43,160 nt of DNA from a virus (lineage: Duplodnaviria > Heunggongvirae > Uroviricota > Caudoviricetes): positions 1-43,160 of the IMG/VR virus record IMGVR_UViG_2534681759_000012; one strand, written 5' to 3'. Every line of letters begins with the position of its first letter. The first letter of the stretch is position 1. This document shows positions 20,383 to 43,160 of the stretch, one piece after another. The notes under the pieces were generated by a model that had not been told where the DNA came from, did no database searches, and saw only the letters and a program-made list of their open reading frames with translations. Made by a program: the position numbers and the translations under genes.

Positions 20383-22329
<1,947 letters not shown>

Positions 22330-25356: not shown

Positions 25357-25499
25357 CAGACCTCCCATCCTTTGCAATGACACCACACTTCAAACATTCG
25401 TTTCACAACCTCACGGCAGTAGAAACCGCCAGTATCGCGGGTCAGATCGTAGCGATTGCCATAACGCTGGCGCATATATCGTTCGAATGCTTTGTTCAT
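25356..25499 (-). CDS. Small nin-region protein, YlcG-like (47 aa)
   Basis: ORF MNKAFERYMRQRYGNRYDLTRDTGGFYCREVVKRMFEVWCHCKGWEV whose start overlaps the rusA stop; same rusA-ylcG-Q arrangement as in the DLP12 prophage as recalled. Below the ORF-track length cutoff. Confidence 0.55.
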   Translation of the reverse strand: MNKAFERYMRQRYGNRYDLTRDTGGFYCREVVKRMFEVWCHCKGWEV

Positions 25500-25858
25500 A
25501 CGCTCTCCAGTTCGGTGATTTTTATTCCAAGCCGTCCGCCTGGTACTTTCACACCACGAATTACGCGAATGTCATCGAATTGCTCGTCGTCTTCCGCAAA
25601 TCCGGCGTGGATAAGGGAGTCGAGTAAACCTTTCAGGATATTATCGAGGTCGCGACGGCGGGAGTCTGGAACGTCTGCGATGACTTTGATGCGGAGTCGT
25701 GATTTGGTGAAAATGTCTAACTTGAGTTGGCGGATGATTTGCTGAACGTCTTTTCGGTATTTCTGGCCTTTATCGCTGATGTAGTATTGGCTTCCCCGTC
25801 TTCGCCAGTAGGTGTTCACCGACGGCGGGTAAGGAAGCACAAACTGATATTCGTTCAT
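25496..25858 (-). CDS. rusA: Holliday junction resolvase RusA
   Basis: 120 aa with RusA hallmarks (LPYPPSVNTYW..., DVPDSRRRDLDN). Confidence 0.9.
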   Translation of the reverse strand: MNEYQFVLPYPPSVNTYWRRRGSQYYISDKGQKYRKDVQQIIRQLKLDIFTKSRLRIKVIADVPDSRRRDLDNILKGLLDSLIHAGFAEDDEQFDDIRVIRGVKVPGGRLGIKITELESV

Positions 25859-27436: not shown

Positions 27437-27609
27437 TTCCTCGCACGATGTCTTAGCCACCGGATATCCCACAGGTGAGCCGTGTAGTTGAAGGTTTTTA
27501 CGTCAGATTCTTTTGGGATTGGCTTGCGTTTATTTCTGGAGCGTTTCGTTGGAAGGTATTTGCAGTTTTCGCAGATTATGTCGGTGATACTTCGTCGCTG
27601 TCGTCTCAT
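27433..27609 (-). CDS. ninE: NinE-like protein
   Basis: Internal start [58 protein letters not shown] matches lambda NinE as recalled; the longer six-frame ORF uses an upstream TTG. Confidence 0.7.
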
Positions 27610-28133
27610 GCCGCCCTCCTGACGCCCTGCCCGATCGCCATCAATGCCGCTTTGGATACGGTAGTAAACATCCGTCGAGGACTGATGAACGGTCGCCAAA
27701 TCAGCAGCATTGAGCCTTTGCTGTTTCCCTTCTTCTCCAGCCCCGTCGATGGTTCGATAAAATTAATCCGTCCATCAGTGATAATGCGAACTTCGTCAAC
27801 GCTCTCCAGAGCCTTGCTGAACCATCCGACTGACATATCCTCTGGCACAAGCATCACTACCGTCTGTCGCTGTTGTATGCACTGCTCAGCGGCTTTTTCT
27901 ACCCACGGCCTGATATTGCTGTACGGTGGGTTATTCCAGATTGCACCGTGGCTTACCCACTCAGAATTGAGCGCGTCGTCGGCCTCAGTTAACCAGTGAG
28001 CGCACAGAGCATTTTTGTCGCTCGCTGCCGAATCCAGCCAGAATCCAAACTCAATATCCAGTGCATCAAAAAGCCAAAGCGGCGTTTGCCAGCAGTCCTT
28101 GTCGTGTGCTGGCGTATTTGATTTGATAGTCAT
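27606..28133 (-). CDS. DNA N6-adenine methyltransferase (phage Dam-like)
   Basis: NPPY catalytic motif ([14 protein letters not shown]) and N-terminal [21 protein letters not shown] typical of phage Dam-like MTases; start placed at MTIKSNTP with ATGA overlap to the ninB stop. Confidence 0.75.
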
Positions 28134-28570
28134 GCAGCCCGATCTCCCCATCGCGCTTTCCATTCGAGAGCCAGTCGCGCTTCGTCTGACCACTTAACGC
28201 CACGCTCTGTACCGAATGCCTGTATAAGCTCTAATAGCTCCGCAAATTCGCTTACACGCATCCTGCTGGTTGACTGGCCTATTACCACAAAGCCATTCCC
28301 GGCAAGGTTAGGAACAACATCCTGCTGCTTTAATGCTGCGGTAAACACACACTTCCAGCTTTCTGCATCCAGCCAGCGACCATGCCATTCAACCTGACGA
28401 GAGACGTCACCAAGGCAAGCCCAAAGCTTTCGATTCTGGTCTAAGCTGCGGTTGCGTTCCTGAATGGTTACTACGATTGGTTTGGTTGGGTCTGGAAGAA
28501 TTTGCTGTACCGCGTGAATAGCGTTTTGCTGATGTGCTGGGGATCGAATTTCAAAGGTTAGTTTTTTCAT
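28130..28570 (-). CDS. ninB: Recombination protein NinB (Orf family)
   Basis: 146 aa; sequence (MKKLTFEIRSPAHQQNAIHAVQQILPDPTKPIVVTIQERNRSLDQNRKLWACLGDV...) matches lambda NinB as recalled. Confidence 0.9.
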   Translation of the reverse strand: MKKLTFEIRSPAHQQNAIHAVQQILPDPTKPIVVTIQERNRSLDQNRKLWACLGDVSRQVEWHGRWLDAESWKCVFTAALKQQDVVPNLAGNGFVVIGQSTSRMRVSEFAELLELIQAFGTERGVKWSDEARLALEWKARWGDRAA

Positions 28571-28847: not shown

Positions 28848-31328
28848 TCAGAATCCTCCTTTCTTCTTGGACTGCGGCTCCTCGCGTTCACGGCGGCGCA
28901 TTTCAGCAGACTGTTGGTCTGTGTCATAAATAGCGCCATTTGCCTGAATGCAATACACCGTGCCGGTATTGCCATGACGATTGAGACGAAGGATTAGTTC
29001 GGTTTCACCAGGTGGAACACTGTCATCAAAAGCACCTTCACGATGGATCCCCACCCAATAATCGCAATCCTGTTCAATCTGCCCTGTATCTCGTGAGTCA
29101 CTTGGTAATGGGCGTTTATTGGTTCGGCTTTCCAGTGCGCGGTTAAGCTGCGTCAGAAGCACAACAACGCAATCAAGCTCTTTGGCAAGGTTCTTCAGTC
29201 CTTTGGTGATCATGCCGTAAGCAAGGTCGTTGCGATCGGCCTTCTCAGCGGTCATTAGTGTCAGGTAATCGACCAGAATCATGCCAACACATCCTTTTTC
29301 TCGCTTGATTCGACGGCTTTCGCTGACGATTTGAGCCAGAGATAATCCCGGCGTGTCGTCGATGTAAAGCATGTCGATTTCACTCAAGCGATTGGCTGTT
29401 TCGATCGCCCTGTTGAAGTCACCATCGTAATCACCCTGATAGCCGTCATCGGCGTCATTTGTCGCCGGAAGGTAAAAAATATTCGGGTTAACACCAGACT
29501 TCTGCCCTACCAGTTTTTCCAGTATCTGGTCACCGGGCATTTCAAGGCTGAACATCAGAGCGGGCTTTTTCTCATGCACTGCGCAGTTGATTGCCATCTG
29601 GCTGTATAGCGTGGTGTTGTGGGTTAGAATGTATCCGTCAGTTGCATACAAATGTCTCTCGTGGGATACCATGATGCAAATGCACTCTTCACGTCCAATA
29701 TACTCAACCGACGTGATAACAGGCGCACTTGTTTTGATGCGTTTTGCAGTGAATTTTTGCTTCAGGCGTGGAGATTTTATGTGTGATAGAACCTCATCAG
29801 GCAACCTGATTGCGCAAATATGGGCATCCATACCTTTGCGCATTTCTCCCTTATAACTGAATTTCGGCTCCTGTTTGGTTGTCATACGACACACGCCACC
29901 AAGAGAATGCACCAGCCGCTTTACACCATCTGACAGGAACTTGCTTGCCGAGCTAAAGCGCAGGGCATTATTTCCTTCAACCCAACCATCGGTTTCAAGT
30001 AATCCGCATAGAACATCAATACGAGTTTGCTTATCAGCAGAAAAAATAATATCCGGGATAATTTTAATCTCTGACATCCGGCCGTAGATACCAAGCCGTT
30101 GCATAACCCGCGTAAGAGATAATTTGCGGCTAAACTTGTGAGATAGGGAGTAATCGCAGCCAGAAACATTTCTGACTTCAATATCGTCACCCACTTCAGA
30201 TCTTACTCGCTCAATGATGTATGGTTCCGTCATGCTGATTCGTGGCGTACCTGCAAGATTTCCATCGCCAAGTAACGCACCTAACAGCCATGGGCTAATC
30301 CCTAAATCAACAGGCAATCCGAAGTCACCGCTAATACCAGGAACATGAATGCGGCTTTGATAGCGAACGCATTCCATCATGTCCCGTAGGCGGCAGGTGT
30401 CTACAACATCAACGCCACCGGTAATACGGTTACTATGAATTTCCCACAAATGATCATCCGCGCAATCAACGGTTCTTCCGTCAGAGAACGTAACTCGGTA
30501 AATATCTCGCTCCCCTTGAGGAAAAACTCCAGACACGAATGATGGTTGTCCATCCACTGATGCTAGGGAATCTCCAACACATACGTCACGAAATGTTGTC
30601 CATGAACCATCAGCAAGCAAAATGCGTGAATTAAGCGGTTGCGCTTTCCCCATCTTAGGGCGAGCGCCAATGACAAACAGAGAGCCTTTCACCAGACCTT
30701 TCGGTGACAGCATCCTGTCCAGCGATGGGATCCCTGTGCTCATTCCTCGTTGTTCGCCTGACGGGTCAAATCGCTTCTCAAGGTCGCTAACCCAGTCTTC
30801 CATGACCTCACCAAATGAACGAAGGCCGCGACGCGATCCGGTTTTTGCATGGTCTGTCAGTTGCGTGAAAATCGACTGAATAGCTTCGTACTTCTGTGTT
30901 GCAGTCATTCCGTTGCGGGAATAGAGCAATTCCGTCGCTTCAGTCATGCGGTTGATGGCGTAGCGTTCCATTGCGGTTTCACGAACCTGCATTGCATAGG
31001 CAACGATGTTTGCTGCGCTTGGCGTGTTCTTTGCGATCTCAGCGATATAAGCAAAACCGCCAACAGACGCCGTTAACGATTTACGCTCCAGTTCATCGAA
31101 AAGCGTCAGGCCATCTACTGGCTTTTGCTCCCGGTGCATTCTGGTTATTTCTTCGAAAAGGATTTTGTGTGGTCGGCTGTAAAATGAGTCAGGCTTCAGC
31201 ATCGCCAGAACTTTCTGGACGCGCTCACTGCAGTCATCATCCAGAAGCAATCCACCAATCACCGCCTGCTCTGCCTCGATGCTATGGGGCGGCGCATAAA
31301 AATTATCGGTCATCGTGTTCACCCTCAC
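28848..31328 (-). CDS. Replicative DNA helicase (DnaB family) interrupted in-frame by an intein
   Basis: 826 aa; DnaB N-terminal domain (PHSIEAEQAVIGGLLLDD...), Walker A split as GARPKMGK / TTLYS by a 343-aa insertion, then DnaB motifs (LVDYLTLM, LLTQLNRALESR). Confidence 0.85.
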   Translation of the reverse strand: MRVNTMTDNFYAPPHSIEAEQAVIGGLLLDDDCSERVQKVLAMLKPDSFYSRPHKILFEEITRMHREQKPVDGLTLFDELERKSLTASVGGFAYIAEIAKNTPSAANIVAYAMQVRETAMERYAINRMTEATELLYSRNGMTATQKYEAIQSIFTQLTDHAKTGSRRGLRSFGEVMEDWVSDLEKRFDPSGEQRGMSTGIPSLDRMLSPKGLVKGSLFVIGARPKMGKAQPLNSRILLADGSWTTFRDVCVGDSLASVDGQPSFVSGVFPQGERDIYRVTFSDGRTVDCADDHLWEIHSNRITGGVDVVDTCRLRDMMECVRYQSRIHVPGISGDFGLPVDLGISPWLLGALLGDGNLAGTPRISMTEPYIIERVRSEVGDDIEVRNVSGCDYSLSHKFSRKLSLTRVMQRLGIYGRMSEIKIIPDIIFSADKQTRIDVLCGLLETDGWVEGNNALRFSSASKFLSDGVKRLVHSLGGVCRMTTKQEPKFSYKGEMRKGMDAHICAIRLPDEVLSHIKSPRLKQKFTAKRIKTSAPVITSVEYIGREECICIMVSHERHLYATDGYILTHNTTLYSQMAINCAVHEKKPALMFSLEMPGDQILEKLVGQKSGVNPNIFYLPATNDADDGYQGDYDGDFNRAIETANRLSEIDMLYIDDTPGLSLAQIVSESRRIKREKGCVGMILVDYLTLMTAEKADRNDLAYGMITKGLKNLAKELDCVVVLLTQLNRALESRTNKRPLPSDSRDTGQIEQDCDYWVGIHREGAFDDSVPPGETELILRLNRHGNTGTVYCIQANGAIYDTDQQSAEMRRREREEPQSKKKGGF
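29616..30644 (-). other. Intein with LAGLIDADG homing-endonuclease motifs inside the helicase P-loop
   Basis: Residues 229..571 of the helicase: starts with Ala (AQPLNSRILLADGSW...), ends ...YILTHN followed by Thr; two LAGLIDADG-like motifs (LGALLGDGNL and LCGLLETDGWVEG); removing it restores GARPKMGKTT. Confidence 0.75.
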
Positions 31329-33112: not shown

Positions 33113-33799
33113 ATGGATAAATACGAACAAAGACGACTAAGGCTGATAGAGATAAGAGACCGATTCTGTAATGGAAAGGCCTCAGAGTTGGCTCGTCGAA
33201 TAGAAAGGGAACCATCATACGTTTCCAGAATGCTGTATCCGGAAGGAAAAAGCGGAAAAAAACGCATTGCTGACGATATGATGGAACTAATTGAAAAATC
33301 TTTTAATCTCCCACGCGGATGGATGGACATGCTTGCAGATGGTAAAGCTGGAGCTACGGACCATCTTGAGTTTGCGGGTAACGTTCGTGCGGGTTTTGTT
33401 CCGGTAATTGGTGAAGCCGTTTTGGGAGTTGATGGCTCAGTGGATATGATTGAATTCAGATCCGGTTGGTTAAGCATCTACAGCGGCGATAAAGATGCTT
33501 ACGGTCTGAAGGTTAAGGGTGACAGCATGTGGCCAAGGATTCAGTCAGGAGAATATGTTGTTATTGAACCAAATACGCCAGTACATCCAGGTGATGAAGT
33601 CTTTGTAAGGACCAAAGACGGTCACAACATGATAAAGATCATGAACAAAACAAGAGACGGTGATTATCAGTTTAGTAGCATAAACAGTGATCACCGCCCA
33701 ATCACTCTTCCTGTTGAAGAAGTTGATAAAATGCATTTTGTTTCAGCTATTGTGAAACACACCAGGTACGTAGACCAGGACGATCTGCCAAAAGTTTGA
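33113..33799 (+). CDS. cI: Prophage repressor CI (HTH plus LexA-like S24 autopeptidase domain)
   Basis: 228 aa; N-terminal HTH (ASELARRIEREPSYVSRML); C-terminal S24-type motifs (KVKGDSMWPRIQSGEYVVIE, KIMNK); not lambda immunity. Confidence 0.85.
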   Translation: MDKYEQRRLRLIEIRDRFCNGKASELARRIEREPSYVSRMLYPEGKSGKKRIADDMMELIEKSFNLPRGWMDMLADGKAGATDHLEFAGNVRAGFVPVIGEAVLGVDGSVDMIEFRSGWLSIYSGDKDAYGLKVKGDSMWPRIQSGEYVVIEPNTPVHPGDEVFVRTKDGHNMIKIMNKTRDGDYQFSSINSDHRPITLPVEEVDKMHFVSAIVKHTRYVDQDDLPKV

Positions 33800-34587: not shown

Positions 34588-34914
34588 ATGGATGCACAAA
34601 CACGCCGCCGCGAACGTCGCGCAGAGAAACAGGCTCAATGGAAAGCAGCAAATCCCCTGTTGGTTGGGGTAAGCGCAAAACCAGTTAACCGCCCTATTCT
34701 CTCGCTGAATCGCAAACCGAAATCACGAGTAGAAAGCGCACTGAATCCGATAGACCTTACGGTGCTGGCTGAATACCACGAACAGATTGAAAGCAACCTG
34801 CAACGTATTGAGCGCAAGAATCAGCGCACATGGTACAGCAAGCCACGCAGTGAAATGGGTGTGACTTGTGTTGGTCGCCAGAAAATGAAATTAGGCAGCA
34901 AACCACTTATTTGA
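34588..34914 (+). CDS. N: Antiterminator N (lambda-type)
   Basis: 108 aa beginning MDAQTRRRERRAEKQAQWKAANPLLVGVSAKPVNRPILSLNRKPKSRVESALNPIDLTVLAEYH, matching lambda N as recalled; C-terminus diverges slightly. Confidence 0.9.
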   Translation: MDAQTRRRERRAEKQAQWKAANPLLVGVSAKPVNRPILSLNRKPKSRVESALNPIDLTVLAEYHEQIESNLQRIERKNQRTWYSKPRSEMGVTCVGRQKMKLGSKPLI

Positions 34915-35788: not shown

Positions 35789-36192
35789 GGAGCAATGTCG
35801 CTCGTAACTAAACAGGAGCCGACTTGTTCTGATTATTGGAAATCTTCTTTGCCCTCCGATGTGGGGGCCTTTTTATATACATACCAATAACGCTTCACTC
35901 GAGGCGTTTTCGTTATGCAATCAAACAGAAGGAGCATCCTATGCAACAGTTCGCTATTGCAGGGGCGGCATCGGTTCGCCCTTTCAACCCGATTTTATCG
36001 GTACAGCATTCACGAAAAAATATTTTAACCGGAGCAGACTTTAAACAACCAAGAATGAAAAGTTTGCTCGAAAAGCTTTGGGATATTTTGAAACAACAAG
36101 GCCGTCCATGAGTTTTACGGATAACTGGTCAGACGAAGAATTCATTCGTCAGATGAACAAAATGCTCAATCAGCACAAAGAACAGGAGAAAG

Positions 36193-36504
36193 ATGATGAT
36201 TCTGACTCTGAATGATAAGCGTGAAATATCGCAAATAATCGCAAGTTTTACTGATGAAGATTACGAACGAATCAACAGTGAAGTTGATCGCCTCTGCAAA
36301 CGTTGCGACCCAATAAGCGAAATGCTTCGCTCATATAAACCAGATGAACACACTAAGGACGCTATCGACTGGCTGGAAGATGATGATTGTAACTATCAGG
36401 AAAAAGCCGCTGAATGGTTCTGGGATGCAATAACCGAAAGAGTTAAGGCTGAATATGCCTTCGCAATATTCAAACGCAGACATATTTTTGGAGAAGCAGC
36501 ATGA
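36193..36504 (+). CDS. Hypothetical protein (103 aa) upstream of recT
   Basis: ORF whose stop overlaps the recT start; acidic; no family recognised. Confidence 0.45.
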   Translation: MMILTLNDKREISQIIASFTDEDYERINSEVDRLCKRCDPISEMLRSYKPDEHTKDAIDWLEDDDCNYQEKAAEWFWDAITERVKAEYAFAIFKRRHIFGEAA

Positions 36505-37412
36505 GCAATATCGTTGAATTCGTTAAACAGCAGGAGCAGTTATTCTGCGGAGCATTGACTGAACAGACGGTGACATGGGCTAAGGAAAGCCAGTTTGCAA
36601 TTCAGTATTTCCAGAAAAATGATTACCTGGCTAAAACGGCACTGGCAAATCCAACCAGCGCACAGAACGCCATCATCAATGTTGCGGCGATCGGCATCAC
36701 CTTAAACCCGGCCAGCAAACTGGCTTATCTAGTTCCGCGCGACGGCATGGTTTGCCTTGATATCAGCTATATGGGATTGCTCCATATTGCAATGGAGTCT
36801 GGTGTTATCTCATGGGGTCAGGCAAAACTTGTTCATGCTAACGATACCTATGAGTCAAACGGGCTTGATAAAGCACCAACCCATAAATACAACGCCTTCG
36901 GTGATCGTGGTGATATCGTTGGCGTTTACTGCACAGTTAAGACGCCAGCAGGTGATTATCTAACGGAAGAGATGAGTCTGGCTGAAATTGAGGCTGTAAG
37001 GAAAACAAGCAAGGCAGCATTCAGCGATAAAGGACCATGGGTAAATCACTGGAATGAGATGGCGCGAAAGACGGTCGTAAAGCGTGCAAGCAAGTATTGG
37101 CCTAAGGCATCACGTCTTGATAGTGCTATTCACGTACTAAACGAAGAAGAAGGTGTGTGGACTGAACCAGTTATGCCGCACAAATCAGAGGAAGATATCC
37201 GCGAAGATGAACGGAAACGCCAGCAGGAAATAATGGATAAAGCACAACTTCTTTGCGATGAAATGGCTCAGGCAGAAAACATGGATGATTTGAAGCGATA
37301 TTTTGCAGAAGCATATCGCCTGACATCTGGAATGAAATTGCAGCAGAACGTACAAGCCATTTACATAGAATGCAAAGCGAAACTGGAGGTTGCCAGTGAG
37401 CAAACTGTATGA
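36501..37412 (+). CDS. recT: Single-strand annealing recombinase, RecT family
   Basis: 303 aa; C-terminal core GPWVNHWNEMARKTVVKRASKYWP parallels the E. coli RecT segment GPWVTHWEEMAKKTAIRRLFKYLP. Confidence 0.8.
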   Translation: MSNIVEFVKQQEQLFCGALTEQTVTWAKESQFAIQYFQKNDYLAKTALANPTSAQNAIINVAAIGITLNPASKLAYLVPRDGMVCLDISYMGLLHIAMESGVISWGQAKLVHANDTYESNGLDKAPTHKYNAFGDRGDIVGVYCTVKTPAGDYLTEEMSLAEIEAVRKTSKAAFSDKGPWVNHWNEMARKTVVKRASKYWPKASRLDSAIHVLNEEEGVWTEPVMPHKSEEDIREDERKRQQEIMDKAQLLCDEMAQAENMDDLKRYFAEAYRLTSGMKLQQNVQAIYIECKAKLEVASEQTV

Positions 37413-37878
37413 AATAGCCAATGAATACGCAAAGCTGATGGATTCAGATTTAGAACCAGAGATGATTGCTGACACAATAGAAGGCATGGAAGGAGAATTT
37501 ACCGATAAAATAGAGCAACTTCTCGCCATTATTAAAAATGAATCTGGTTATGCTGAACGCCTCAAGGAAGAGGCAAAGTCACTAAATGAGCGAGCCGCAG
37601 TAATTCAAAATAAGATTGACAGCATCAAATCATATATAGCGTCATCGCTTGAAATGGTTGGCAAGAAAAAGATTCGAGCAGGTATTCACCAGGTAACAAT
37701 CCGCAAACCGTCAGAAACTGTAGAAATCATCGACTCAAGCGCCCTTCCTCCTGAATACGTTGAGTTTGAAACGACAATTAAAGCCGACAAACTGGCAATC
37801 AAACACCAACTAAAAGCAGGAATAAATATCCCAGGCGCTCAACTCAAGGTTGGGAAACCTTCACTTCTTATCAAATAA
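37390..37878 (+). CDS. Siphovirus Gp157-like protein
   Basis: 162-aa helical protein directly downstream of and overlapping recT, the usual pairing for Gp157-family proteins; family assignment from composition and context. Confidence 0.45.
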   Translation: MPVSKLYEIANEYAKLMDSDLEPEMIADTIEGMEGEFTDKIEQLLAIIKNESGYAERLKEEAKSLNERAAVIQNKIDSIKSYIASSLEMVGKKKIRAGIHQVTIRKPSETVEIIDSSALPPEYVEFETTIKADKLAIKHQLKAGINIPGAQLKVGKPSLLIK

Positions 37879-37889
37879 CGGTATCGACT

Positions 37890-38204
37890 ATGAAAAAGAC
37901 TCCATGGGAGAAATGGGAAGTCGATTTCTTGCGCGAAGTAGCGGCGACAATGCCAGTTGAAGTTATCGCTGAAAAACTGGAAAGGACTGAAAAAGCAGTA
38001 ATGGCGAAAGCAACAAGGATTGGCGCTGACATTGTTAGCCGACTTCGTGGAAGACGCTGGACAAGAGCCGAAGTATCACTTTTCGGTAAGTTCTCCGCAG
38101 AAGAAATAGCAATTGCAACCTGCCGCTCAATTTATTCAGTAAGGGCTATGCGATACAAGCTAAAAAAACTCGATGAAGAAAGAGCAGGCATACGAATAAA
38201 TTAA
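37890..38204 (+). CDS. Hypothetical protein (104 aa)
   Basis: Compact ORF in the early-left operon; basic C-terminus; no family recognised. Confidence 0.45.
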
Positions 38205-38533
38205 CAAAGAGGAATTTACCATGAGAGGACTTGCATACAATCCCGGCATTCTTCCGGCAGAAATGATTATTCGCCAACGCGTAAAGCCAATGCCATCGAG
38301 AGAGGAATTGCTTAAGAGAAATTCTTCTCCGTCAGTAAATCAAAACAAATATCTGAATGCGATGTGGCGCAAAGGAGGCAACCAGTGAATAACCGTTTTT
38401 ACATGATGTGCTTGCGTGAAACTGTGGGTAATAACGCCTCATTCCATTGCCATAACGGCAATGAGCATGGCGAGATGGCTATGAAGCAGGGAAAACGCCT
38501 GTCGAAGTATATTGTGATGAGTGGGGTGGGTGA

Positions 38534-39295
38534 ATGATTTGCCTTCACAACGCAGACTGCTTTGACATCTTTCCGCAAATCGCCAGCAACTCCGTAGATC
38601 TTGTATGTGCCGATATTCCATATGGAACAACTCGGTGTCGCTGGGATTCTGTTCTCGACCTGCAGTTGATGTGGAAGCAGATTTACCGTATTTCCAAACC
38701 GAACGCTGCAATTGTTCTGTTTTCCGCTCAGCCTTTTACCAGCGTGCTGATCAACAGCAATCTTCGTGACTGGAAAACAGAATGGATTTGGGAAAAGCCA
38801 CACGCGACAGGATTTTTGAACGCAAAAAAACAACCTTTAAGAGCGCATGAAAATATTGAAGTTTTTTACAGAAAGCAACCGACATACAACCCACAGATGA
38901 CGTATGGGCACGCCAGAAAAACCTCAACAAGAGGTAGGCTGAATACTGATGTATATGGCGATGCGCTGAAAAAGGTCGTTTACGATTCAACAAGTCGCTA
39001 TCCGAGAGACGTGCAGAAATTCTCCAGCGACAAGCAAAAGCAGGCACTTCATTCAACACAAAAGCCACTGGCTCTGGTGAGATATCTGATTGAAACATAT
39101 AGCAATATTGGCGACACAGTGTTGGATTTCACTATGGGTAGCGGAACTACTGGCGTTGCGTGCCAACAATCAGGACGCCGATTTACAGGAATAGAAAAAG
39201 ATCCAGAAATTTTTCGTATCGCATTAGAGCGTATGGGAATTAAACAGGAGCATGCAGCATTGAATTTTGTGGAGACAACCAGTGAACAAGATTGA
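38534..39295 (+). CDS. DNA methyltransferase (beta-class N6-adenine/N4-cytosine type, orphan)
   Basis: 253 aa; motif IV variant DIPY (VCADIPYG) precedes motif I (FTMGSGTTG), the beta-class order; no adjacent restriction gene. Confidence 0.75.
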   Translation: MICLHNADCFDIFPQIASNSVDLVCADIPYGTTRCRWDSVLDLQLMWKQIYRISKPNAAIVLFSAQPFTSVLINSNLRDWKTEWIWEKPHATGFLNAKKQPLRAHENIEVFYRKQPTYNPQMTYGHARKTSTRGRLNTDVYGDALKKVVYDSTSRYPRDVQKFSSDKQKQALHSTQKPLALVRYLIETYSNIGDTVLDFTMGSGTTGVACQQSGRRFTGIEKDPEIFRIALERMGIKQEHAALNFVETTSEQD

Positions 39296-41182: not shown

Positions 41183-41383
41183 ATGCAACACGAACTACAA
41201 CCTGATTCACTGGTTGATTTGAAATTCATCATGGCTGATACTGGCTTTGGTAAAACCTTCATCTATGACCGGATTAAGTCCGGCGACCTGCCAAAAGCCA
41301 AAGTTATCCACGGGCGAGCAAGATGGTTATATCGTGACCATTGTGAATTCAAAAATAAGCTCTTAAGCCGCGCTAATGGGTAA
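41183..41383 (+). CDS. xis: Excisionase / AlpA-family DNA-binding protein
   Basis: 66-aa ORF with AlpA/Xis-type HTH signature, last phage gene before the att core. Confidence 0.7.
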   Translation: MQHELQPDSLVDLKFIMADTGFGKTFIYDRIKSGDLPKAKVIHGRARWLYRDHCEFKNKLLSRANG

Positions 41384-41456
41384 AATAGCGGGTAAAATAT
41401 TTTTCACATCTAAAAAACACCATTCCAATCAATCCCCTGCCGCTTCAAGTAGATGT

Positions 41457-41471
41457 CTGCAGGGGACACCA
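41457..41471 (+). other. Prophage att core: 15-bp copy of the argW tRNA-Arg 3' end (attR)
   Basis: CTGCAGGGGACACCA matches the 3' acceptor-stem end of argW as recalled; no upstream T-arm, so a partial copy typical of the distal att site. Confidence 0.65.
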
Positions 41472-41863
41472 GATACCCTTCAAACGAAATCTACCTTCAC
41501 CCCGTAAAAGATGGGTTTGGCAGCACACTTGCCTTATATCTACTCATTTTTACTGCAACAGGTTGAAATCTCAGCACTGTCAGAAAGCGCTGATGACTAA
41601 ACAGCCCTGGGCCGGGCGATGTAACCATCACACAGAATCCTGATAGCGAAATATGGCGTGACTCGATACTTCACTCCGCAATGCATTCCTTGATGAATTC
41701 GCAGGACCGTGATACACGGGACAGGTCACTGAATGACGACAATGTCCTGGAAATCAGCGAACCGCGCATCTGAAGTACATTTGAGCGACTGTACCAGAAC
41801 ATGAATGAGGCGTTTGGATTAGGCGATTATTAGCAGGGCTAAGCATTTTACTATTATTATTTT

Positions 41864-41904
41864 CCGGTTGAGGGATATAGAGCTATCGACAACAACCGGA
41901 AAAA
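41864..41904. terminator. Candidate bidirectional terminator downstream of the permease gene
   Basis: Inverted repeat CCGGTTG...CAACCGG flanked by T-run and A-run just 3' of the minus-strand permease stop; the loop is long, so confidence is low. Confidence 0.3.
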
Positions 41905-41912
41905 GTTTACGT

Positions 41913-43160
41913 CTATATTGCTGAAGGTACAGGCGTTTCCATAACTATTTGCTCGCGTTTTTTACTCAAGAAGAAAATGCCAAATAGCAACATCAGGCAG
42001 ACAATACCCGAAATTGCGAAGAAAACTGTCTGGTAGCCTGCGTGGTCAAAGAGTATCCCAGTCGGCGTTGAAAGCAGCACAATCCCAAGCGAACTGGCAA
42101 TTTGAAAACCAATCAGAAAGATCGTCGACGACAGGCGCTTATCAAAGTTTGCCACGCTGTATTTGAAGACGGATATGACACAAAGTGGAACCTCAATGGC
42201 ATGTAACAACTTCACTAATGAAATAATCCAGGGGTTAACGAACAGCGCGCAGGAAAGGATACGCAACGCCATAATCACAACTCCGATAAGTAATGCATTT
42301 TTTGGCCCTACCCGATTCACAAAGAAAGGAATAATCGCCATGCACAGCGCTTCGAGTACCACCTGGAATGAGTTGAGATAACCATACAGGCGCGTTCCTA
42401 CATCGTGTGATTCGAATAAACCTGCATAAAAGACAGGAAAAAGTTGTTGATCAAAAATGTTATAGAAAGACCACGTCCCCACAATAAATATGACGAAAAC
42501 CCAGAAGTTTCGATCCTTGAAAACTGCGATAAAATCCTCTTTTTTTACCCCTCCCGCATCTGCCGCTACGCACTGGTGATCCTTATCTTTAAAACGCATG
42601 TTGATCATCATAAATACAGCGCCAAATAGCGAGACCAACCAGAAGTTGATATGGGGACTGATACTAAAAAATATGCCGGCAAAGAACGCGCCAATAGCAT
42701 AGCCAAAAGATCCCCAGGCGCGCGCTGTTCCATATTCGAAATGAAAATTTCGCGCCATTTTTTCGGTGAAGCTATCAAGCAAACCGCATCCCGCCAGATA
42801 CCCCAAGCCAAAAAATAGCGCCCCCAGAATTAGACCTACAGAAAAATTGCTTTGCAGTAACGGTTCATAAACGTAAATCATAAACGGTCCGGTCAAGACC
42901 AGGATGAAACTCATACACCAGATGAGCGGTTTCTTCAGACCGAGTTTATCCTGAACGATGCCGTAGAACATCATAAATAGAATGCTGGTAAACTGGTTGA
43001 CCGAATAAAGTGTACCTAATTCCGTCCCTGTCAACCCTAGATGTCCTTTCAGCCAAATAGCGTATAACGACCACCACAGCGACCAGGAAATAAAAAAGAG
43101 AAATGAGTAACTGGATGCAAAACGATAGTACGCATTTCTGAATGGAATATTCAGTGCCAT
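41913..43160 (-). CDS. cscB: Host LacY-family (oligosaccharide:H+ symporter) permease, CscB-like sucrose permease
   Basis: 415-aa 12-TM MFS protein with LacY-like N-terminus (SVNQFTSILFMMFYGIVQDKLGLKKPLIW versus LacY ...[22 protein letters not shown]); ordinary GC; outside the prophage; start codon at the window end. Confidence 0.8.
   Translation of the reverse strand: MALNIPFRNAYYRFASSYSFLFFISWSLWWSLYAIWLKGHLGLTGTELGTLYSVNQFTSILFMMFYGIVQDKLGLKKPLIWCMSFILVLTGPFMIYVYEPLLQSNFSVGLILGALFFGLGYLAGCGLLDSFTEKMARNFHFEYGTARAWGSFGYAIGAFFAGIFFSISPHINFWLVSLFGAVFMMINMRFKDKDHQCVAADAGGVKKEDFIAVFKDRNFWVFVIFIVGTWSFYNIFDQQLFPVFYAGLFESHDVGTRLYGYLNSFQVVLEALCMAIIPFFVNRVGPKNALLIGVVIMALRILSCALFVNPWIISLVKLLHAIEVPLCVISVFKYSVANFDKRLSSTIFLIGFQIASSLGIVLLSTPTGILFDHAGYQTVFFAISGIVCLMLLFGIFFLSKKREQIVMETPVPSAI

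Follow-up and report, generated by a model that had tools for sequence, protein, structure and literature searches.

The 43,160-nucleotide stretch analysed here in full (positions 1 to 43,160 of IMG/VR virus record IMGVR_UViG_2534681759_000012; hereafter, the window) is a P22-like (Lederbergvirus-type) lambdoid prophage of E. coli that adjoins the host sucrose permease gene cscB. Its recombination cassette consists of four tightly packed plus-strand genes: a 103-residue open reading frame (ORF), orf103; recT, for a RecT recombinase; a gene for a Sipho_Gp157 protein, here Gp157; and a second small ORF, orf104. Comparison of this cassette with its relatives suggests that Gp157 has replaced the exonuclease as the matched partner of RecT, as judged from the way in which the C-terminal tail of RecT covaries with the gene downstream. 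The reading favoured here, to which we assign a probability of about 0.5, is composite: Gp157 would be a Mu Gam-like protein without enzymatic activity that binds DNA ends and, in the place of the exonuclease Exo, docks on the RecT tail; orf103 would neutralise RecBCD; resection would come from the host or be bypassed at replication forks; and orf104 would be an Abc1-like accessory protein.

The RecT tail and its downstream partner

Relatives of the window RecT recovered by tblastn from a phage collection differ in how far they match: some align over the full length, and others, closer relatives included, over residues 1-220 only. Alignment of these RecT proteins resolves two mutually unrelated C-terminal tails, here termed E-type and G-type. 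In phi80, the Stx2a phage VT2phi_272, Aeromonas phage 56 and Vibrio phage 1.198.B, recT is followed by an overlapping gene for a lambda-Exo or PD-(D/E)XK protein. In HK639, Vibrio phage 1.247.A, two further loci (L089 and L090) and the window, the overlapping downstream gene is gp157, recognised by hidden Markov model (HMM) at E 1.9e-58 in HK639 and 3.3e-55 in Vibrio phage 1.247.A.

This correspondence was surveyed with one genome per species at 80 loci of this RecT subfamily, setting the class assigned by C-terminal domain (CTD) HMMs against the downstream gene. The Bacteroides and Bordetella RecTs that occur with ExoVIII (full-length tblastn matches at 29-32% identity) belong to other RecT subfamilies and were left out. 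Gp157 lies downstream of a G-type tail at 13 loci (15 after manual checks of L101 and L110) and Exo lies downstream of an E-type tail at 37; the mixed combinations, Gp157 with an E-type or Exo with a G-type tail, occur at 0 loci. Fisher's exact test gives 2.8e-12 for this table (13 vs 0, 0 vs 37), computed over loci that share ancestry. At every locus with a readable downstream gene, the G-type tail is paired with Gp157, never with Exo.

The division does not follow the relatedness of the annealing domain. Within the Gp157-partnered RecTs, identity over the N-terminal domain falls to 51%, while identity between a Gp157-partnered and an Exo-partnered RecT reaches 84%; the tail split therefore does not track N-domain relatedness. 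The window protein itself is 59-78% identical over this domain to the Exo-partnered RecTs of phi80, Stx2a phages and Vibrio phage 1.198.B.

The two tails also differ in their relationship to lambda Bet. The E-type tail corresponds to the CTD of lambda Bet (hhalign probability 99.6%, E 5e-24), whereas the G-type tail aligns with the Bet CTD at 0.4% and with the E-type tail at 4%. Likewise, the E-type CTD HMM finds lambda Bet (1.1e-27) and not the window RecT (0.036), so that by both the HMM and hhalign no Red-beta-type Exo-binding CTD was found in the window RecT. The Red-beta CTD is the domain that was crystallised bound to lambda Exo, and it binds host single-stranded DNA-binding protein (SSB) as well (PMC6393309). 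The simplest reading of these data is that a tail and its partner would be swapped together, since each has to suit the other, the G-type tail being a putative docking domain for Gp157. The present analysis adds this proposed match of tail and partner and, likewise by inference, the weak likeness of Gp157 to Mu Gam, the placing of orf103 in the Gam slot and the Abc1-like character of orf104.

The N-terminal part of the window RecT is well defined. It exceeds the curated thresholds of PF03837 (111.9 bits against a cut-off of 24) and TIGR00616 (4.1e-23; 82.4 bits against 52.65) and weakly matches the solved RecT 7UB2 over residues 34-208 (E 0.0044). Most likely, the window RecT anneals single-stranded DNA (ssDNA).

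The four genes appear to be packed for translational coupling. A GGAG motif precedes the ATGATG at the start of orf103, and homologues use the second ATG, at 36196, giving 102 residues. The orf103 stop and the recT start overlap as ATGA. The likeliest start of Gp157 is the GTG at 37396, 6 nt past GGAGG, which yields 160 residues, as in homologues; from this start, the gene overlaps the 3' end of recT by 17 nt. A scan for promoters and terminators within the four-gene block found no excess over shuffled sequence.

An earlier note on this DNA, made from the sequence alone, had described RecT as adjoining a Gp157-like protein and a 103-residue unknown, with no recognisable exonuclease, and this description is borne out. 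Searches for nucleases covered the ten early-left ORFs and other larger ORFs of the window, the ORFs of the P22-like virion block not all being scanned individually. Profile searches found no Exo, YqaJ, RecE or PD-(D/E)XK family in the ten early-left ORFs or the other ORFs scanned, and thus no exonuclease adjacent to RecT of the YqaJ/lambda Exo, RecE/DUF3799 or PD-(D/E)XK kinds; on this count and by its tail, the window RecT falls outside the two-component recombinases of Red-beta/Exo or RecT/RecE type. The profile searches of the flanking ORFs that the note had proposed as a check detected no clear exonuclease fold in either flank, and no neighbouring ORF carries a nuclease signature or fold in Pfam, PHROGs or NCBIfam or, for Gp157, in a structure search of the PDB. 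The contiguous early-left cluster thus holds a gene for a single-strand annealing protein (SAP) and no nuclease or SSB gene, as in the lambdoid Rec class 'anti-RecBCD + SAP, no nuclease, no SSB'. By this gene content and its near-identity to HK140, the module belongs to this class, of which P22 is the prototype, and to its HK140 subtype, a RecBCD antagonist being predicted from homology and position.

Candidate roles of Gp157, orf103 and orf104

Gp157 is assigned to PF05565 with E 2.8e-38 (131.9 bits against a cut-off of 28.6; profile positions 1-162) and to phrog_253, labelled 'Mu Gam-like end protection' (3.5e-54). The Sipho_Gp157 family is large, with 12,292 representative clusters. In the AlphaFold2 (AF2) model (predicted local distance difference test score, pLDDT, 81; predicted template modelling score, pTM, 0.45), a long N-terminal helix at residues 23-89 (about 65 residues) precedes a small C-terminal beta domain. 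Searches of solved structures and viral models returned only other Gp157 proteins and coiled coils, with no Ku and no convincing nuclease. Among the weak or partial structural matches in BFVD are several phage PD-(D/E)XK, YqaJ or RecB-like exonucleases of 280-400 residues, the best being a TIN4 protein at E 9e-3; from these models, an accessory domain resembling Gp157 might be present in some phage exonucleases.

The relationship to Mu Gam emerges from deep profiles. A profile of 128 distant Gp157 representatives aligns with Mu Gam in hhalign at a probability of 37% (E 3.6e-4) across 101 colinear columns. The signal resides in the C-terminal beta domain, which reaches 64% (P 6.6e-5) with a score of 26 against 7-14 in 30 column-shuffled controls; the coiled coil adds nothing to it. 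Weak matches to PF07352 are found for 37 of the 128 relatives (best 5.3e-6). A first comparison with a shallow alignment had given a probability of 1%, which rose only with the 128 distant representatives, and the Mu Gam profile is itself shallow, the homologues retrieved all exceeding 72% identity. Mu Gam belongs to phrog_491, not to phrog_253. Together, the comparisons suggest that Gp157 is likely a distant relative of Mu Gam.

A role as a nuclease enzyme is very unlikely because no Asp, Glu or His is conserved across the 128 relatives; the near-invariant residues are L, Y, K, Y, P, K, G and G. As for position, Gp157 holds the slot taken by lambda-type Exo in sister modules, and in Firmicutes phages it alternates with Mu Gam beside erf or sak4.

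One possibility, in line with the published classification, would be that Gp157 is simply a Mu-Gam-type RecBCD inhibitor with no specific link to RecT, that orf103 is an unrelated accessory, and that RecT acts alone on ssDNA supplied by the host. Zheng, Casjens, Davidson, Amundsen and Smith (Genome Res 2025, PMC12315714), in a survey of 325 lambdoid phages, class HK140 in this way: SAP type 4 'with no phage-encoded nuclease' and a 'MuGam' anti-RecBCD protein. The PHROG label, the remote similarity to Mu Gam and the positional alternation in Firmicutes phages all agree with it. Against this, recT is immediately preceded by Gam, GamL or orf103 at 12 of 14 Gp157 loci: modules with two RecBCD inhibitors would then be the rule, and Gp157 is for this reason unlikely to be merely the RecBCD inhibitor of its module. 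Nor would this account anticipate that the RecT tail switches with Gp157 or Exo, or that Gp157 sits in the Exo position with overlapping frames. We consider the published account possible, though doubtful in this strict form.

In the reading favoured here, RecBCD would be neutralised by orf103. This protein of 102 or 103 residues is acidic (isoelectric point, pI, 4.65) and predicted to be all-helical, and belongs to a narrow family of 27 clusters (phrog_3486, 3.7e-59). It has no Pfam or NCBIfam match, in keeping with the earlier description of it as unknown, and a PDB sequence search returned no match. The argument for its function is positional. Across species, the ORF just upstream of recT encodes Gam, GamL or a phrog_3486 protein, and each occurs with either downstream partner: Gam with Exo at 4 loci and with Gp157 at 4, GamL at 7 and 5, and the orf103 family at 4 and 3. 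Phage Dewey carries lambda Gam in place of orf103, with the break in homology at the recT start codon, and one metagenomic phage has the order orf103-RecT-YqaJ. In size, charge and helicity, orf103 is like GamL (about 100 residues and pI 4.65, compared with 93 residues and pI 4.6-4.7). From this position, orf103 probably stands in for lambda Gam or GamL as the protein that neutralises RecBCD. The earlier note had raised the idea that the flanking ORFs may be nuclease inhibitors, and its direction was right: Gp157 is classed by others as a Mu-Gam-type anti-RecBCD or end-protection protein and orf103 occupies the Gam/GamL slot, the roles being assigned by homology and by position, respectively.

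A related arrangement occurs in Salmonella phage SEN22 (L088, 3314-5326), in which the order is orf103-ExoVIII-a 189-residue protein (phrog_11517)-orf104, RecT and Gp157 being replaced. SEN22 is described as having no annealing protein, no anti-RecBCD function and no Chi sites (PMC12315714); orf103 could be its missing inhibitor.

The last gene of the cassette encodes a basic protein (pI 10) with two helix-turn-helix (HTH)/Myb-like repeats. orf104 matches phrog_11492 (4.6e-23) and phrog_323 (2.8e-20). Both P22 Abc1 and Mu gp9 are members of phrog_323, and orf104 and Abc1 match overlapping regions of the profile. BLASTP finds Mu gp9 at E 5e-5 and no match to P22 Abc1 or Abc2, so that the link to Abc1 runs through the shared PHROG and Mu gp9 only. 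The Gally record labels the equivalent of orf104 'Anti-RecBCD protein 1', and the Mu gp9 gene lies directly upstream of Mu gam. Most likely, judging from these profile matches, orf104 is an Abc1/Mu gp9-like accessory DNA-binding protein.

HTH proteins of phrog_323 (Mu gp9, P22 Abc1, orf104 and relatives of 64-158 residues) recur beside genes for end protection or anti-RecBCD function: Mu gam (L005, 5482-6325), P22 abc2 (L004, 6631-7255) and gp157 (window, 37396-38204). This recurrence hints at a conserved partnership.

Proposed mechanism and rival explanations

If these assignments are combined, the cassette would serve as the Rec module of a P22-like, N-antiterminated temperate phage, and recombination likely involves: annealing of ssDNA by RecT, as expected from its clear homology; binding and shielding of double-strand ends by Gp157, which would bring RecT there; neutralisation of RecBCD by the acidic, helical orf103, as by lambda Gam or GamL; and accessory DNA binding by orf104 in the manner of Abc1 or Mu gp9. 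Gp157 would be the dedicated partner of RecT in the place of lambda-type Exo, as suggested by the predicted translational coupling, the Exo slot and the matched tail; its end-binding activity is proposed from the remote homology to Mu Gam. The 5'-3' resection may be provided by host enzymes such as RecJ/RecQ, or may be bypassed by annealing at replication forks; this last step is speculative. A broader form of this proposal, in which the Gp157 family as a whole would be Mu Gam/Ku-like end binders docking on a dedicated RecT CTD and replacing the exonuclease in a Red-like system, with orf103 (phrog_3486) as a previously unrecognised RecBCD-inhibitor family, is put forward tentatively.

Several observations weigh against the composite mechanism. 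The covariation of tail and partner could reflect the linkage of adjacent DNA rather than protein contact, and the enteric Gp157 group is largely a single clade. The link to Mu Gam is weak, with hhalign probabilities of 37-64%, and the window Gp157 itself has no PF07352 match at E <= 0.1. A Ku-like end cap would hinder resection, leaving the source of ssDNA unexplained. For orf103, no similarity to Gam, GamL, Arf, Abc1 or Abc2 is detectable by hhalign or BLAST (probability below 1% against lambda Gam and phi80 GamL; PF06064 not matched), and its all-alpha AF2 model is poor (pLDDT 60). Finally, Gally lacking its recT-gam-abc1 block still produces virions and lysogenises (PMC9928086), making the module dispensable in a wild-type host.

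A different possibility is that Gp157 assists RecT in another way, for example as a mediator, as an SSB-like loader or as a coiled-coil scaffold, or that its role has nothing to do with DNA ends and is one of exclusion or 'resistance'. The structure searches, which give a long coiled coil and a small beta domain with no solved relative, would accommodate such roles; 'resistance protein' is among the database names for Gp157, and the Red-beta CTD, which binds host SSB in addition to Exo, shows that such a tail can have several partners. This alternative is unlikely, in that the colinear Mu Gam signal comes from the beta domain rather than the coiled coil and stands clearly above the shuffled controls, and the family is found consistently within recombination modules.

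It might also be supposed that the module is decayed: an ancestral RecT-Exo pair would have lost Exo, and the remaining genes would be relics in a defective prophage. The insertion element in the late region (below), the lack of an integrase beside xis and the tolerance of Gally to deletion of its module could be taken in this sense. This explanation was rejected as highly improbable. The same cassette is present in the plaque-forming or inducible phages mEpX1, HK140, Kapi1 and Gally, and in Gally recT is induced (PMC9928086); it is conserved, at identities that range from 98% to, in Vibrio, about 50%, and its overlapping frames are intact; and RecT has a different tail, not a useless Exo-binding one that has been kept.

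That orf103, Gp157 or orf104 is a cryptic exonuclease of unrecognised fold is the least probable explanation and was likewise rejected: the weak, partial Foldseek matches of Gp157 to PD-(D/E)XK/YqaJ/RecB-like viral models (rank 13 at E 9e-3; ranks 35 and 43-46 at E > 0.3) are set against the lack of any nuclease family in Pfam, PHROGs and NCBIfam or nuclease match in the PDB, the near-invariant Gp157 residues, none of them acidic or His in the 128 relatives, and the character of the other two proteins, orf103 being small, acidic and helical and orf104 a basic HTH protein.

The cassette itself is ordinary, being common in E. coli prophages and of a kind already surveyed. Its interest is limited to the roles of Gp157 and orf103 and to the tail-partner correspondence. 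The function of Gp157 matters for a very large family (more than 12,000 sequence clusters), and the supply of ssDNA in nuclease-free RecT systems bears on recombineering, in which RecT alone performs poorly with double-stranded DNA cassettes. Defence systems such as retrons and Gabija are triggered by RecBCD inhibitors and by end-binding proteins; a new family of either kind, if true, would be useful to work on defence and counter-defence. If the proposal is correct, Gp157 and RecT, together with orf103, would constitute a recombination pathway of an 'end-capper + annealer' kind, with resection borrowed from the host.

Prophage setting and comparison with known systems

The early-left operon runs along the plus strand in the order c2-type repressor, N, ral, a membrane ORF, orf103, RecT, Gp157 and orf104, followed by the DUF2737 ORF, a Dam-like methylase, Ead/Ea22, DUF551 and then an xis-like ORF. 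The minus strand carries the virion genes (small and large terminase, portal, scaffold, coat, needle, ejection proteins and tailspike) and the replication and nin genes (O-like initiator, DnaB, NinB, Dam, RusA and Q). Besides the RecT module, NinB and RusA are the only recombination functions found in the scanned window ORFs. The coordinates are collected in the table.

Features of the recombination cassette and of the surrounding prophage, in window coordinates
Feature	Coordinates	Strand	Remarks
orf103	36193-36504	+	103-aa ORF; phrog_3486 'unknown'
RecT	36501-37412	+	PF03837 E 3.7e-32; phrog_148 5.9e-92
RecT N-terminal domain, predicted ssDNA-annealing	36501-37160	+	about aa 1-220; PF03837 covers aa 31-217
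RecT C-terminal domain, G-type	37161-37412	+	about aa 221-303
Gp157	37396-37878	+	160 aa; PF05565; ORF list begins at TTG 37390
orf104	37890-38204	+	104-aa HTH-like; phrog_11492/phrog_323
DUF2737 small ORF	38221-38388	+	PF10930 at 3.3e-30; 3' of module in most relatives
c2-type repressor	33113-33799	+	early-left operon
N	34588-34914	+	early-left operon
Terminator-like hairpin	35851-35868	+	inside cIII-region ORF
N6_N4_Mtase	38534-39295	+	early-left
xis-like ORF and right end	41183-41913		xis-like ORF, about 500 bp without ORF, then host cscB
DnaB-type replicative helicase	28848-31328	-	826 aa
NinB	28130-28570	-	recombination function outside the module
PF05869 Dam	27606-28193	-	nin region
RusA	25496-25858	-	recombination function outside the module
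IS21-family element	20469-22270	+	istA with rve domain, and istB
Tyrosine integrase	1-1152		far left end

Several features of the surrounding prophage were noted in passing. Upstream of the module lies a strong terminator-like hairpin, the equivalent of which is annotated as a rho-independent terminator in the mEpX1 record; N antitermination presumably reads through it. The helicase gene contains an insert of about 340 residues with a LAGLIDADG motif that splits the Walker-A/DnaB_C region (GARPKMGK|AQPL...THN|TTLY), and from its sequence this insert looks like an intein. An IS21-family element (insertion sequence, IS) is located between the lysis genes and the small-terminase gene, within the minus-strand late operon, which may leave the prophage defective in late expression. 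The sole tyrosine integrase stands beside a low-GC 441-residue phrog_14022 ORF and the tailspike at the left end, and the xis-like ORF is at the right; the position of integrase and excisionase at opposite ends therefore suggests a rearrangement or a composite element. No tRNA gene is present in the window. Two unrelated DNA adenine methyltransferase genes occur, one in the early-left operon and one in the nin region. There are 0 Chi sites in the 43-kb window, where shuffled sequence expects only about 1; this fits a phage that encodes anti-RecBCD functions and is no test of that idea.

The arrangement, which the earlier note had set against the usual pairing of RecT with a 5'-3' exonuclease, is neither unusual nor novel. 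In the survey by Zheng et al. (PMC12315714), 84 of 246 Rec modules have no nuclease, P22 and HK620 being the classic cases, and the HK140 module, already named there, is 98.1% identical to that of the window across 100% of the 2.6-kb query. The nucleotide identity of this 2.6-kb block to Gally (the LF82 prophage), mEpX1, HK140 and Kapi1 is about 98%, and the cassette is present at >=80% query coverage in 264 complete E. coli genomes. The authors of the Gally study name the block recT-gam-abc1 (PMC9928086). The cassette is thus already catalogued in known E. coli phages and is a previously described module type. Its order, orf103-RecT-Gp157-orf104, is kept in 77 of 80 related viral contigs, and the DUF2737 ORF is co-linear with it in 76 of 80; these 80 viral loci, from a Gp157 contig scan, are near-identical E. 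coli loci and are useful only as a measure of cassette invariance. The DUF2737 ORF is probably not part of the recombination machinery.

Compared with HK140, mEpX1, Gally and Kapi1, the window module is not substantively different: the nucleotide identity noted above runs over orf103-recT-gp157-orf104-DUF2737, and order and overlaps are alike. The surrounding prophage is a different mosaic, with P22-like virion genes, the apparently intein-containing DnaB and the IS21 element.

P22 (arf-erf-abc1-abc2) resembles the window in that it encodes no exonuclease of its own. In both, a small acidic ORF immediately precedes the gene of the annealing protein, and an HTH protein of Abc1 type is encoded downstream, P22 Abc1 and orf104 sharing a PHROG; the place in the early-left operon is also equivalent. 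In contrast to P22, in which the annealing protein is Erf, the window has RecT, and it has no Abc2, the RecC-binding RecBCD hijacker; in the accepted model for P22, Abc2 hijacks RecBCD for resection and Erf loading (PMC9836394). Gp157 has no P22 counterpart, and orf103 is not similar to Arf. Mutants of P22 in erf fail in recA hosts, and a comparable phenotype would be expected of phages with the window type of module when it is deleted.

With phage Mu, the likeness lies in the remote, colinear similarity predicted between the C-terminal domains of Gp157 and Mu Gam, and in the pairing of gp9 (phrog_323) with gam, as orf104 adjoins gp157 in the window. The two end-protection candidates nonetheless fall into different families (PF05565/phrog_253 for Gp157, PF07352/phrog_491 for Mu Gam), Mu has no RecT, and the likeness is known from sequence profiles rather than from fold.

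In the lambda Red, phi80 and Stx modules (gam or gamL, bet or recT, exo), slot 3 is occupied by a YqaJ/lambda Exo nuclease, whereas in the window it is occupied by Gp157, and the window RecT differs correspondingly in having no Red-beta-type Exo-binding CTD. What these modules share with the window is the three-slot layout itself, in which slot 1 alternates among Gam, GamL and orf103.

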